Of a stretch of 64,000 nucleotides of DNA, positions 2,622 to 58,625 are shown in pieces (position 1 is the first letter of the stretch; each line of letters opens with the position of its first letter). This DNA is from Alphaproteobacteria bacterium (GTDB taxonomy: Bacteria; Pseudomonadota; Alphaproteobacteria; Rickettsiales; UBA8987), in NCBI GenBank assembly GCA_031426355.1, contig JANPLD010000118.1, forward strand, positions 3,477-67,476. The letters run 5' to 3'. The notes under the pieces were generated by a model. It was not told the DNA's origin and made no database searches. It saw nothing but the letters and a program-made list of their open reading frames with translations. A program made the position numbers and the translations under genes.

Positions 2622-2653
2622 TTAACCTTTTTTTAACATTACTCTGCTATAAT
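2622..2653 (+). promoter_or_regulatory. CtrA-type box plus -10: TTAA-ccttttt-TTAAC-attactctgc-TATAAT
   Basis: Perfect TTAA-N7-TTAAC, N10, TATAAT; -10 ends 26 nt before ATG at 2680. Confidence 0.6.
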
Positions 2654-2878
2654 CTATTAGAACATAGAAACATAGCACAATGCCGGGGAAAATCACCATA
2701 ACCGAACAACAATATGATCTTATAATAAAAGATCTGGTGAAAGCTGCCTTGTAAATAATGCAAATTCAATATTTTCATTTGATGAAAACAGCAATTGGCA
2801 AAGAATAGAAAAGTTATCAGGAATTGCTTTTAATAAATCCCAAGCGAAACTCCAGGTTTTCCTACTGACTTCATATTT

Positions 2879-3673
2879 ATGACCTGCTATAATTCTTCCT
2901 TCGCAGATGCTTTTAACAACAAGGCAAAACCTGGATCAATTGCAGTATTCATGAATGATGGCGATGAGATATTTAATCCTATAAGGGCCTTCAATACGAG
3001 AAACGCCTTAAAAAAATACCTTAATTCCGAACTCCATTACGAAGCAGGATTTTCACCTTATGATTTTATGCTTGTATCACTGTTGGAAGGTGGTTTTTCT
3101 GACAGGATAATAAACCCTGAAGAAGATAGCAGTAAGATAATTGGCGTACCACAAATGGTCGTCGCAGGAAAAAACAAAGATGGCTCAGTTATAAACCCGC
3201 AATATCTGGCAAATATACGCCTGCATAATTTTAGATCCGGACAACCTCTATTCACCGAAGAAGAAATATTACGCTTAAAAACAAATCCGGTAATTCAATA
3301 TTTTAATAGCGATATTGAAACTGAAATAAAATTGGTCCAAAATACCCTTACGGCATATAATGACAATAACATCTCTGAGATTCTCCACGAAAAAACTACG
3401 CATTGGAGCCATATATCAAAATTCCTCGCCTTTTCAGTTGTAGCGCTTCCACCAGTTAACCTTAAGGAAAATACATTGGCCCTGAACATAAGGGCGGAAA
3501 TATTCTCTGACAAAAAAGTAACTCCTAAAGAAGATGCTATCCTTGAAAAAATTGATAACATGTATTTCTTCGACAGAAAAATAGATGATAAGGAAGCTGC
3601 TCAACTTCAAGAACTCAATAAAAGCCTGTTGACACCACAATTCAAGGCAACTGACAAAAACCGCGGGAAGTAA
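2879..3673 (+). CDS. hypothetical protein (orphan); possibly the 3' part of a disrupted gene starting at 2680
   Basis: 264-aa ORF, no recognisable motif, no obvious SD; upstream frames 2680-2878 look coding but hold one in-frame stop and one frame change. Confidence 0.45.
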   Translation: MTCYNSSFADAFNNKAKPGSIAVFMNDGDEIFNPIRAFNTRNALKKYLNSELHYEAGFSPYDFMLVSLLEGGFSDRIINPEEDSSKIIGVPQMVVAGKNKDGSVINPQYLANIRLHNFRSGQPLFTEEEILRLKTNPVIQYFNSDIETEIKLVQNTLTAYNDNNISEILHEKTTHWSHISKFLAFSVVALPPVNLKENTLALNIRAEIFSDKKVTPKEDAILEKIDNMYFFDRKIDDKEAAQLQELNKSLLTPQFKATDKNRGK

Positions 3674-3713
3674 CTACACAATAAAAGCAACTAATAATAA
3701 ATAGCTGGTTAAA

Positions 3714-4745
3714 CTAAGCCAATACATCCGTAAACAACTCATTAGCATCAGGTTCAGGGCTGGCTTTTGCAAACTCAACGGCCTCTTCAACTATCTGCTT
3801 AACTTTTTTATCGATCACGGAAAATTCTTCTTCACCTGCGATGTTATTTTCGAGGATGAATTTCTGTAAATTGACTATCGGGTCTTTATGCTCCCGGAAT
3901 TCCGCAACTTCTTCTTTCGTTCTATACTTCGCCGGGTCAGACATTGAGTGACCACGATAACGGTAAGTTTTCATTTCCAGGAGTAACGGCCCTTTCCCGC
4001 TTCTTACATATTCAACAGCTTCTTTACCTGCTTCAAAAACCTCCAACACATCCATTCCGTTAACTACTCTTCCCGGAATTCCAAAACCTTCACCACGTTT
4101 ATAATATTCAGCCATTGCAGTAGAACGCTTGGTTGAAGTTCCCATCGCATATTCATTATTCTCAATGATGAATATTGCAGGCAGTTTCCATAGCGCCGCC
4201 ATATTGAAAGTCTCATAAACCTGCCCTTGGTTAGCAGCGCCATCACCAAAATAAGTTACCGAAATATTATCATTCTCACGATATTTATTAGCAAATGCAA
4301 GTCCGGCCCCGAGAGGCACATTCGCGCCGACTATACCGTGTCCACCGTAAAAACCATTCTTAAGGTCAAACATATGCATCGAGCCACCTTTACCGCGTGA
4401 ACAGCCAGTTTCACGCCCCATCAATTCTGCAAATATAACTTTTGGATCAGTTCCCGCTGCAACCATATGTCCGTGGTCCCTGTATGTCGTAATGCTCTGG
4501 TCACCTTTCTTAAGGTTAGCTTGCATTCCCGTGATAACTGCTTCCTGCCCTATATATAAATGGCAGAAACCACCTATCAGCCCCATACCGTATAATGCAC
4601 CCGCGCGCTCTTCAAAACGCCTGATCTGAAGCATCGTATCATAAAACTTAAGTAACTGTTCTTTAGAGTATTTTTTCGGGTTTTTACCATCCCCTTTAAT
4701 AGATTTCACGTTAGAATCCTTTTGCATCACACCGCCTGATTTCAT
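3714..4745 (-). CDS. pdhA: pyruvate dehydrogenase E1 component, alpha subunit
   Basis: 343 aa; TPP-binding GDGAANQG...NN motif, YRYRGHSMSDP phospho-loop-type motif typical of heterotetrameric E1 alpha. Confidence 0.9.
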   Translation of the reverse strand: MKSGGVMQKDSNVKSIKGDGKNPKKYSKEQLLKFYDTMLQIRRFEERAGALYGMGLIGGFCHLYIGQEAVITGMQANLKKGDQSITTYRDHGHMVAAGTDPKVIFAELMGRETGCSRGKGGSMHMFDLKNGFYGGHGIVGANVPLGAGLAFANKYRENDNISVTYFGDGAANQGQVYETFNMAALWKLPAIFIIENNEYAMGTSTKRSTAMAEYYKRGEGFGIPGRVVNGMDVLEVFEAGKEAVEYVRSGKGPLLLEMKTYRYRGHSMSDPAKYRTKEEVAEFREHKDPIVNLQKFILENNIAGEEEFSVIDKKVKQIVEEAVEFAKASPEPDANELFTDVLA

Positions 4746-4874
4746 GAAAAAACCTTGTTCATTATAGCATAAATTCGAGGCGGAAAATAGTCTAATATTG
4801 ATGATGTTTCAAGTGGAAACCTTCATTGTTCAAATAGTATAAGAACACTATTTTTTTCCTATTATCAGCCCTTC

Positions 4875-56559: not shown

Positions 56560-56599
56560 GAAGCAGCATTATCAGGATAATTAAGAATTATATTCAACC

Positions 56600-57106
56600 T
56601 TAAATTGATTTTCCAGCTTTATTTATTTCTGTTCTGACAGAATCACAGACTGACTGTAATTTTACCAGTTTTTCTACAGCTTCTCCCGAATTGAATAACC
56701 TAGGTTGTTTCTCAGTCACAAAAGAAAAACCATGATCTTTATCTATAGCCCCTTTAACTTGTACCGCAGCCATTTTAAAATCTGCAACAAATTCCATAAC
56801 TGAAGTTTTTAAATTTTTTTCAAAATCCCTCATATCTTTAGAAGCGCCTAATTTCTGAAGAGCAAAAACTGTGTAATCATCTACATGATCTAATTTTTCC
56901 AGACTAAAATCATCCTTTGTAAAAAGAATACCAGTTAAAGAAATCAAATTTGAATCTTTTGCCGCTTTAACAAGTTTATTTTTAAATTTCCTTGCCTCAT
57001 CCTTAACTACATAAGATATTTGATGCTCCTTACCTTCTGTAAGAAAGGCTCTTTCTATCATAGGATGGAAGCTTCTTAAACTCTTAGGTATATCAATATT
57101 AACCAT
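56600..57106 (-). CDS. hypothetical protein (orphan) 8 nt downstream of lpdA
   Basis: 168-aa ORF; no motif; no room for its own promoter. Confidence 0.45.
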   Translation of the reverse strand: MVNIDIPKSLRSFHPMIERAFLTEGKEHQISYVVKDEARKFKNKLVKAAKDSNLISLTGILFTKDDFSLEKLDHVDDYTVFALQKLGASKDMRDFEKNLKTSVMEFVADFKMAAVQVKGAIDKDHGFSFVTEKQPRLFNSGEAVEKLVKLQSVCDSVRTEINKAGKSI

Positions 57107-57114
57107 AAAGCCCC

Positions 57115-58524
57115 TTAAATATGAATAGCCCTTTTCGCTACATCAAGCGCCGCTTCTTTGATCGCTTCATTTAAATCAGGATGTGAATGGCAGGTACGCG
57201 CTATATCTTCCGCAGATGCGCCATATTCCATAGCGGTAACAGCTTCAGCTATCATAGTGCCAGCCTGGATACCGATTATATGAACACCAAGGACCTTATC
57301 AGTTTTTTTGCAGGCAAGTATCTTTACAAAACCTTCTGTCTTACCAACTGCTTTCGCCCGGGAATTTGCTGCGAACGGGAATTTACCCTTATTATATTCG
57401 ATACCTTTCTCTTTCAGCTTTTCTTCCGTTGCACCAACAGAGGCAACTTCTGGATGGGTATATATAACCGCAGGCATAAGATCATAATTCACGTGCCCTT
57501 TCTGGCCAGCCATTATCTCAACTGCTGCAATAGCATCTTCCTCAGCTTTATGAGCAAGCATAGGCCCGGCAATAACGTCACCAACCGCATATATAGTTTT
57601 TTTGTTGGTCTCAAAATGGTCATTAACTTTTATCCTGCCACGATCATCAAGTTCAACTCCGGCTTCTTTCAAGCCCAGATTTTTAGTATTTGGCTTACGG
57701 CCGATAGCTACCAAAACTACATCTGCTGTTATCTTTTCCTGAGCGCCGCCTTTTGAAGGTTCAACAGTCAGAGTTACTGATTTCTTATCCTTAACCGCAC
57801 CTAATACCTTAGTTGAAGTTCTAAATTTAATACCTTGTTTTTCAAGGGTTTTACGGAATGCTTTGCGAATTTCTTCATCCTGGCCCGGAACTATCTCATC
57901 AAGATATTCAACTACCTCAACTTCAGCGCCAAGCCTTCTCCATACCGAACCCATTTCAAGGCCGATAACACCGCCACCAATAACGATAAGTTTATTCGGA
58001 ACTTCTTTAAGTGAAAGCGCGCCAGTAGATGAAACGATCCTGTCCTCATCAATCTCTACACCTGGAAGTTCTGCAACTTCAGAACCAGTTGCTATAAGTA
58101 TATTTTTTGCGCGGAGTGACTCAGGCTCGCCCTGCTCTTTCTTAACCGCAACAACACCATTACCCATGATAACAGCCGCGCCAACATAACGCGTAACTTT
58201 ATTCTTTTTGAAGAGGTAATCTATACCTTGCGTAAGGCTTGTAACAACATCATCCTTCTTTTTTATCATAACGGAAAGGTCAAGCTTAACATCTTTCGCA
58301 ATTATACCGTGTTCTGCTGCGTGGTGCTTGGTCTGCTCATATATTTCAGATGAATGAAGGAGCGCCTTTGAAGGTATACAACCAACATTAAGACAGGTGC
58401 CACCAAGTGATTTACGCTTTTCGATACAGGCAACTTTCATACCAAGTTGCGCCGCGCGTATAGCGCCAACATATCCCGCCGGGCCGCCACCAATAACGAT
58501 TAGATCAAATGCTTCTGCTGTCAT
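57115..58524 (-). CDS. lpdA: dihydrolipoyl dehydrogenase (E3)
   Basis: 469 aa; GGGPAGY, redox-active GGTCLNVGCIPSK, C-terminal HSHPDLNE. Confidence 0.95.
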   Translation of the reverse strand: MTAEAFDLIVIGGGPAGYVGAIRAAQLGMKVACIEKRKSLGGTCLNVGCIPSKALLHSSEIYEQTKHHAAEHGIIAKDVKLDLSVMIKKKDDVVTSLTQGIDYLFKKNKVTRYVGAAVIMGNGVVAVKKEQGEPESLRAKNILIATGSEVAELPGVEIDEDRIVSSTGALSLKEVPNKLIVIGGGVIGLEMGSVWRRLGAEVEVVEYLDEIVPGQDEEIRKAFRKTLEKQGIKFRTSTKVLGAVKDKKSVTLTVEPSKGGAQEKITADVVLVAIGRKPNTKNLGLKEAGVELDDRGRIKVNDHFETNKKTIYAVGDVIAGPMLAHKAEEDAIAAVEIMAGQKGHVNYDLMPAVIYTHPEVASVGATEEKLKEKGIEYNKGKFPFAANSRAKAVGKTEGFVKILACKKTDKVLGVHIIGIQAGTMIAEAVTAMEYGASAEDIARTCHSHPDLNEAIKEAALDVAKRAIHI

Positions 58525-58593
58525 ATATATAGTTGTTATAGTTGAGTATCTAATTGTTAGGGGTTATAAATATTATTATATTTATGGCAAGCT

Positions 58594-58625
58594 TTAAGGA
58601 TTAATTTACCATTTTGTAATATAGT
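58594..58625 (+). promoter_or_regulatory. weak box plus -10: TTAA-ggattaa-TTTAC-cattttgtaa-TATAGT
   Basis: Correct geometry but proximal half-site has one mismatch and -10 ends only 7 nt before ATG 58633 (would imply a leaderless mRNA or a different start). Confidence 0.3.

Follow-up and report, generated by a model that had tools for sequence, protein, structure and literature searches.

Do the unfamiliar genes that lie between the conserved genes of an alphaproteobacterial genome answer to one regulator and, if so, to which? We analysed a 64-kilobase (kb) stretch of contig JANPLD010000118.1 (assembly GCA_031426355.1), hereafter the window, in which a promoter layout of 32 nucleotides (nt)—two TTAA half-sites followed at a fixed distance by a TATAAT-like −10 hexamer—precedes nine genes that lack a recognizable family and are referred to here as orphans. 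The layout forms a sharply separate class of nine sites, recurs in related genomes and resembles the box of the regulator CtrA, which probably activates these genes.

The window has a GC content of 38.8%, and its intergenic DNA amounts to 5.8 kb, or about 9%. The full layout, defined as TTAA-N7-TTAA-N11-TANNNT on both strands, has nine exact matches: 2622+, 4875+, 12235+, 16717+, 38553−, 44398+, 54126+, 54739+ and 56559− (the initial annotation of this DNA gave minus-strand sites by their high coordinate). Dinucleotide shuffles of the whole window lead us to expect 0.38 matches, and none of 100 reached nine; under a first-order Markov null derived from intergenic DNA 0.185 are expected, and nine were reached in none of 3,000 sets. 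The signal is independent of the choice of pattern because only one spacing and one offset are enriched. TTAA-Nx-TTAA occurs in intergenic DNA nine times at x = 7 and between zero and four times at each other x from 0 to 20; for the 26 oriented cores, the offset to TANNNT (0–30) peaks at 11 with nine hits, and the runner-up peaks of five and four hits are overlapping TA-rich readings. All nine copies are intergenic and, as had been claimed, each points at a start codon on its own strand, 53–69 nt from the start of the motif. A position weight matrix built from the nine sites and scanned over both strands of the window sets them apart at 21–33 bits (8.7–28 bits when each is left out in turn). 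The best hit outside the training set, at 58594, scores 9.3 bits, and the rest of the window, on either strand, at most 7.6 bits. The nine sites, each a CtrA-type box with a −10 hexamer, are as follows.

2622–2653, plus strand: TTAACCTTTTTTTAAC-N10-TATAAT; 33.5 bits; exact match to the full pattern.
4875–4906, plus strand: TTAACAGTTGCTTAAC-N10-TAAAAT; TGt before the hexamer; 32.5 bits.
12235–12266, plus strand: TTAAGGGTTTATTAAG-N10-TAGAAT; 28.9 bits.
16717–16748, plus strand: TTAACGTTTTGTTAAC-N10-TATATT; 31 of 32 positions identical in the related contig L083.
38522–38553, minus strand: TTAATGAAAAATTAAC-N10-TAATAT; 21.2 bits.
44398–44429, plus strand: TTAATTATTTATTAAC-N10-TATACT; half-sites, CTTT and −10 hexamer kept in the related contig L165.
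54126–54157, plus strand: TTAATCATTCCTTAAC-N10-TATAAT; overlaps the start codon of a trxB-like gene on the opposite strand; equivalents in the related contigs L166 and L173.
54739–54770, plus strand: TTAACCATTTATTAAA-N10-TATAAT; holds the 8-mer TTAACCAT; 31.7 bits.
56528–56559, minus strand: TTAACCTTTTTTTAAT-N10-TATATT; 23.8 bits.

The initial annotation had counted eleven sites with this layout. All eleven strings are present in the DNA, but the matrix separates only the nine above from the background; the two others, and a perfect core beside one of them, are listed here.

58594–58625, plus strand: doubtful site, TTAAGGATTAATTTAC-N10-TATAGT; 9.3 bits; hexamer 7 nt from the ATG.
32892–32923, minus strand: variant proposed in the initial annotation, unsupported; GTAAC-N6-GTAAC; 0.7 bits, equal to background.
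32928–32943, no strand assigned: perfect TTAA-N7-TTAAC core, TTAATCTTTTTTTAAC, 5 nt upstream of the preceding variant; role uncertain.

We rejected 58594 as a member because of its weak box, its hexamer so close to the ATG and the lack of conservation in L167/L168, where a 66% identical orthologue of the downstream gene occupies the same position but its promoter does not keep the box. With the variant at 32923(−) falls the Cys-patterned secreted protein that had been named as a member of the set. Between the core at 32928–32943 and the downstream TATAGT of gene 32387–32851 lie 29 nt instead of 10, so any CtrA role there, which is uncertain, would use a different geometry.

Promoter anatomy was read from an alignment of 17 sites, the nine of the window and eight from relatives. 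Both TTAA half-sites are invariant (17/17); C follows the first in 13 sites, and spacer positions 4–5 are T in 16. The repeat unit is a direct one of about 11 base pairs (bp), TTAAC-c/g-n-TTT-n, present twice, a periodicity into which two subunits of a winged-helix response regulator would fit head to tail. TTAAC is the usual form of the second half-site, the hexamer has the consensus TAtAaT, and TG stands at or beside position −14, the extended −10 position, in 12 of the 17. A perfect TTAA-N7-TTAA core is found in all nine window sites and TTAA-N7-TTAAC in six, as had been reported; the continuation TTAAC-CTTT, claimed for four, is found in three only, since 54739 reads TTAAA-CTTT. The hexamer lies exactly 10 nt after the second TTAAC in all nine. 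No TTGACA-like −35 hexamer is paired with any of these nine hexamers at the position checked, 17 nt upstream; what a canonical sigma-70 promoter would require at −35 is absent, and the −10 hexamer itself and the TG are present. A generic scan for sigma-70 promoters and terminators performed at chance level and was uninformative. Given a transcription start about 7 nt past the hexamer, the 5′ T of the box would lie at about −38 or −39. Beyond some 15 constrained positions no sequence is common to the sites, which are therefore not copies of a repeat element. The box divergent from the trxB-like gene overlaps the start codon of that gene by 8 nt, both in the window (54126–54133) and in L173, a 79% relative (13883–13890); binding there could also alter trxB expression.

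The layout is confined in the window to one kind of gene. Among genes with an upstream spacer of at least 45 nt, it precedes 9 of 21 orphans and none of 28 annotated genes (Fisher p = 1.4e-4), which agrees with the earlier statements that it marks orphans and is missing before housekeeping genes. The genes behind the nine sites are these.

2680–3673, plus strand: gene behind site 2622, apparently frameshifted; no Pfam family.
4928–6244, plus strand: 438-amino-acid orphan; weak pentapeptide-repeat hit at residues 61–99 (PF00805, E = 1.3e-4); singleton cluster.
12293–13327, plus strand: 344-amino-acid orphan, divergent from gatA; no Pfam family; singleton cluster.
16771–17832, plus strand: 353-amino-acid orphan with an HExxH motif, between rplO and secY; no Pfam or PDB hit.
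36974–38491, minus strand: 505-amino-acid orphan between pgmG and rho; no Pfam family; singleton cluster.
44467–45246, plus strand: 259-amino-acid orphan, divergent from hda; truncated to 25 amino acids in the relative L165.
54184–54690, plus strand: 168-amino-acid orphan; no Pfam family; singleton cluster.
54807–55475, plus strand: 222-amino-acid orphan; N-terminal MFIEQGLQRQMQ in common with L166 4445–4996.
55487–56503, minus strand: 338-amino-acid orphan; clear homologues limited to two proteins from relatives.

Open reading frames of 168–505 codons in DNA of 32% GC, each with a ribosome-binding site, argue that these are real genes. The exception in form is the gene behind site 2622, where the direct reading frame has 24 amino acids (2680–2754) and is followed by a piece in another frame and then by a frame of 264 amino acids (2879–3673) that starts 257 nt from the site; two frameshifts are apparent, and the broken-looking stretch at 2654–3673 is identical in the independent Logan assembly L001. 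Apart from the weak pentapeptide hit in 4928–6244, Pfam detected no family above noise in the nine genes. All nine products are singletons when clustered at 90% identity, no paralogy was found among them, and a PDB sequence search with three of them returned no match. A search of GTDB genome contigs with the orphan 4928–6244 found no close relative; the HExxH orphan had no homologue among 5.8e9 proteins. For 55487–56503, a search of 1.84e9 representatives gave five hits at E ≤ 0.001: one is the protein itself, two are relatives matched over their full length (47% and 29%) and two match over short stretches only. Its homologues in L166 belong to a unit that is preceded by a box with this layout. 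Several genes of the window that lack both a site and a Pfam family are conserved in relatives at 55–83% identity, as against the site-bearing genes, which are mostly without an orthologue. The site-bearing genes also differ from their neighbours in composition, with a GC content of 32.5% versus 41.0% and a GC content at third codon positions of 24.6% versus 36.5% (p about 1e-5 to 1e-4), and their products are richer in K, E and N and less hydrophobic.

The initial annotation had seen an M48-like peptidase among the members. That label is unsupported for 16771–17832, which has no Pfam hit at E ≤ 0.01 and no PDB hit at E ≤ 1, and for which a single-sequence AlphaFold model reached a predicted local distance difference test score (pLDDT) of 35; the HExxH motif alone is left. 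In a crude hydrophobicity scan, no stretch in any of the nine proteins reached the length of a signal peptide or membrane segment, their C-terminal net charge, considered as a type IV secretion signal, is no different from that of other proteins (p = 0.12–0.49), and no secretion genes were found in the window; VirB8/CagX was seen only in the distant relative L172. A host-directed or secreted role for the nine proteins is plausible as a hypothesis. As a separate observation, an N-terminal motif, G(L/T)Q(R/Q)QMQ, is common to four proteins behind sites (54807–55475, 44467–45246, L166 4445–4996 and L165 at about 1548–1622); MFIEQGLQRQMQ and MFTEIGLQRQMQ are identical at 10 of 12 positions, and the remainder of the proteins can barely be aligned.

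Contigs of relatives were found through a protein database and look-ups of the encoding contigs. They contain ten further copies of the layout, in L083, L165 and L166 from SRR13608703 and in L167/L168, L169 (GCA_033762595.1), L171 and L173, with a start codon 57–77 nt from the start of the motif; in nine of the ten cases the downstream gene lacks a Pfam family. Eight of them fall within 113 kb in which 1.15 would be expected, and 1.63 Mb of other alphaproteobacterial loci hold only two matches. A box in L084, a JGI metagenome contig (TTAATCATTTGTTAAC), has a different spacing to its −10 hexamer and was not counted.

Three promoters, those facing away from secY, hda and trxB, recur at equivalent positions in relatives, with changed spacer bases and changed downstream genes. 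The one divergent from secY (window 16590–16800 compared with L083 1500–1722) drives the HExxH orphan in the window and a gene with a Pro_dh domain in L083, and similarity between the two loci stops 3 nt past the hexamer, as if the cargo had been swapped behind a fixed promoter. In the hda-divergent promoter of L165, the half-sites, the CTTT and the hexamer are kept, the spacer drifts and the gene behind is reduced to 25 codons. The trxB-divergent promoter is present in the window, L166 and L173; in L173 it reads TTAACCAT, and the three proteins encoded behind it cannot be aligned.

Which regulators are candidates depends on the host, which is an alphaproteobacterium by its proteins. When SecY was compared with GTDB at one genome per species, no match exceeded 65% identity (range 58–65%), and all 80 matches kept were Alphaproteobacteria or unclassified proteobacterial metagenome-assembled genomes (MAGs), a scan that resolves the class and no finer rank. 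The window also carries a pyruvate dehydrogenase (PDH) E1-alpha gene of the 'y' type, PgmG and a fused HpnC/HpnD. Relatives of LpdA are graded at 94, 90, 85, 80, 79, 77 and 66% identity, and those with names are "MAG: Rickettsiales bacterium" GCA_033762595.1 (85%) and "Rickettsiales endosymbiont of Stachyamoeba lipophora" (66%); the best LpdA match in a scan of JGI metagenome contigs was 65%. On this evidence, single-protein similarity and MAG labels, the nearest named relatives are Rickettsiales-labelled MAGs. We found no literature mentioning SRR20217183, SRR13608703 or JANRLM/GCA_033762595. An origin in Legionellales, with the regulator PmrA, was rejected on taxonomy (SecY, PDH E1-alpha/PgmG and LpdA): for an alphaproteobacterial host with relatives labelled Rickettsiales, CtrA, not PmrA, is the fitting candidate.

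The box matches what is known of CtrA. Consensus alphaproteobacterial CtrA sites are TTAA-N7-TTAAC and TTAACCAT (PMC4426382), as the initial annotation had recognized for the first of these, and the 8-mer occurs in window site 54739 and in the L173 site at 13890. Full CtrA sites in activated promoters of Caulobacter begin near −35, that of ctrA P2 at −39 (PMC4287350), and most CtrA-activated Caulobacter promoters have a single site at −35 (PMC11264516). The CckA–CtrA system is kept in Rickettsiales, and ctrA from Rickettsia complements a Caulobacter ctrA deletion (PMC2877005). The best explanation of the nine sites, and one that we consider probable, is therefore CtrA-dependent activation of promoters that lack a −35 element and have a TATAAT-type −10 hexamer, most with an upstream TG. 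The two TTAA(C) half-sites, 11 bp apart, would occupy the place of the −35 element; a dimer of phosphorylated CtrA would bind both on one face of the helix and recruit sigma-70 RNA polymerase to a promoter without a −35 hexamer of its own. The nine genes would be silent unless CtrA is active, and their joint expression would coincide with its active stage in the cell cycle or in development, the targets being unrelated, low-GC, fast-turning-over and apparently soluble proteins specific to a Rickettsiales-like clade. The DNA itself shows the motif, its fixed spacing and orientation, its association with orphans and its recurrence in relatives, as well as an alphaproteobacterial host; we infer which regulator binds, where transcription starts, that binding activates and does not repress, and what the proteins do. 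The layout seems to mark one co-regulated set.

Several findings weigh against this reading. There is no response regulator gene within the 64 kb, and the regulators met by chance in L170 and L173 are PhoB-like and about 30% identical to CtrA (in a comparison with an approximate Caulobacter CtrA sequence). Neither the C that is conserved behind the first TTAA nor the run of T in the spacer could be documented for the Caulobacter consensus. No copies of the layout were found in about 20 kb each of the more distant L170 (80%) and L172 (66%), where perfect cores show no consistent layout. Thirteen other genes of the window without a Pfam family lack a site, and the Pro_dh-domain gene of L083 means that the targets are not strictly orphans.

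Some of these points favour a real shared operator bound by another protein, either a different winged-helix regulator of the OmpR/PhoB family or an unrelated dimeric regulator that replaces the −35 element in the manner of PmrA. The OmpR/PhoB family generically uses 11-bp tandem repeats where a −35 element would stand, PhoB-like regulators are present in L170 and L173, and the extended unit TTAAC-c/g-n-TTT exceeds the published CtrA core, so that a winged-helix regulator of similar taste could be at work. There is also a precedent for such a regulon in Legionella, where PmrA activates about 40 scattered effector genes (PMC6989116). PmrA, however, belongs to Legionellales and not to the class of the host, TTAA-N7-TTAAC is the documented CtrA site in Alphaproteobacteria, the 8-mer form is present as well, and the predicted position matches that of ctrA P2. 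We regard another dimeric regulator of similar specificity as the main rival, although an unlikely one.

The remaining alternatives dispense with an activator or with regulation, and we consider each of them unlikely. An alternative sigma factor that reads the second TTAAC as its −35-like element, across a short spacer, would account for the rigid spacing to the −10 hexamer and for the missing TTGACA-like hexamer. Such a factor would not need the first TTAA, which lies 11 bp upstream and is equally invariant, the TATAAT-like hexamer with TG is a signature of the housekeeping sigma factor and, to our knowledge, a spacer of 10 nt fits no sigma family; this explanation is very improbable. Equally little credit is due to the view that inserted genes brought the sequence with them, as a mobile promoter cassette or as a scar of recombination. 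Orphans do sit between conserved genes such as rplO and secY, and in L083 another gene follows the same promoter, with similarity ending just after the hexamer. A cassette, however, should leave common sequence beyond the constrained positions, or flanking repeats, and neither is seen; orthologous promoters instead keep the half-sites while the spacer bases drift, the pattern of a protein-binding site rather than of a copied element. Chance, acting through AT-rich intergenic DNA and selection by eye, could draw on the abundance of TTAA (113 copies in spacers of 28% GC) and on the two of the eleven original sites that look like over-reading. It is effectively refuted by the null sets, by the unique peaks of spacing and offset, by the correct orientation of all nine sites and by the recurrence of the layout in relatives.

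The window has other features of note. Pfam-less genes lie inside otherwise universal operons at 16771–17832 (opposite strand, between rplO and secY) and 28043–28843 (between tuf and rpsJ), and in L083 a thiamine pyrophosphate (TPP)-enzyme gene (3073–5001) lies between secY and adk. Rho (34538–36694; 718 amino acids) has an N-terminal extension of about 275 amino acids, ribosomal protein L15 (17913–18569; 218 amino acids) is extended at its C terminus, and HpnC and HpnD are fused in one protein of 565 amino acids (41995–43692). At 48913–50698, a gene with a large-terminase RNaseH-like domain (Terminase_6C) stands beside a small orphan; a former prophage or gene transfer agent may have left it behind. 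A SET-domain protein (51139–51729) is 86% conserved in L166; this and a PEBP/RKIP-family protein (8214–9002) have eukaryote-like domains, which fit a host-associated lifestyle. A 23S rRNA intervening-sequence protein is encoded at 40034–40405. Short inverted or tandem repeats fill spacers in or near conserved operons (24173–24270, 27867–28042 and 53003–53128), for example GTACTTAGTAC... before rpsC and GATTCGTTG/CAACGAATC before 52679–53002. The plus strand has a strong excess of C over G, and no tRNA genes or Rfam families at the gathering threshold were found in the whole 64 kb. On the 3-kb contig L084 (JGI 3300043334), an open reading frame of 100 amino acids (2346–2648) is 95% identical to the first 98 residues of GatA of the host and lies beside phage-like genes, one with a weak Peptidase_S74 hit.

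If CtrA drives the nine genes, the CtrA regulon of this clade would consist mostly of lineage-specific accessory proteins rather than classical cell-cycle genes, and the cell cycle or a developmental stage would be tied to a fast-evolving gene set. With the layout, genes that act at a particular stage or on a host might then be picked out cheaply, by sequence, from metagenome-assembled genomes of Rickettsiales-like bacteria, much as the PmrA box served to find effectors of Legionella and Coxiella. The three position-conserved promoters with differing genes are a tractable case for the wiring of new or foreign genes into an existing regulon. The low GC content of the targets also makes them candidates for silencing with counter-activation by CtrA, an arrangement described for MucR and CtrA in Caulobacter. 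We put forward only tentatively, as a possibility that is more doubtful than the CtrA mechanism itself, that in a protist-associated Rickettsiales-like clade CtrA has been taken over as the master switch for a large arsenal of proteins that act on the host and are rapidly replaced, which would be the counterpart, among Alphaproteobacteria, of PmrA with its Dot/Icm effectors. At about one site per 7 kb this would imply hundreds of promoters per genome, genes would be exchanged, or arise anew, behind conserved promoters that serve as fixed slots, and the 32-nt layout would predict effectors directly in uncultured symbionts.

Among known systems, PmrA promoters of Legionella pneumophila and Coxiella burnetii are alike in their tandem TTAA-containing repeat, bound just before the −10 hexamer at a fixed distance, and in serving many unrelated genes. 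That system is gammaproteobacterial, whereas the host here is an alphaproteobacterium and no Dot/Icm or other secretion system was seen in the window; the parallel drawn in the initial annotation is only a functional analogy, not membership. In the pho-box of enterobacteria, two 11-bp direct repeats bound by PhoB likewise stand in for the −35 hexamer and bring in the housekeeping sigma factor. The repeat sequence differs from the one here, and the PhoB-like regulators of the relatives are not linked to the sites. A closer comparison set is formed by intracellular alphaproteobacteria whose CtrA regulons have been predicted or validated: Wolbachia, Ehrlichia chaffeensis and Rickettsia prowazekii keep CckA–CtrA and have consensus CtrA boxes before dozens of genes (PMC4426382, PMC2877005 and PMC7397232). 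In Wolbachia, 34–55 open reading frames per genome were counted with a site anywhere within 450 bp upstream (PMC4426382), whereas here nine sites in 64 kb keep one fixed distance to the −10 hexamer and all precede fast-evolving genes. The nearest likeness is to the full-motif promoters of Caulobacter crescentus, also an alphaproteobacterium, with a single TTAA-N7-TTAA(C) site overlapping −35. The 5′ base of that box lies about 35 to 39 nt upstream of the start site, and the corresponding position here, as predicted from the hexamer, would agree with it. Unlike in Caulobacter, the promoters described here have a TATAAT-like −10 hexamer, often with TG upstream, at an invariant spacing, with the regulator and start sites being predictions, and their targets are lineage-specific genes without a Pfam family rather than genes for flagella, division and methylation. 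The design of a CtrA promoter is thus known, and what is new is its use, at about one site in 7 kb and with invariant geometry, before fast-evolving genes without a Pfam family instead of cell-cycle genes.

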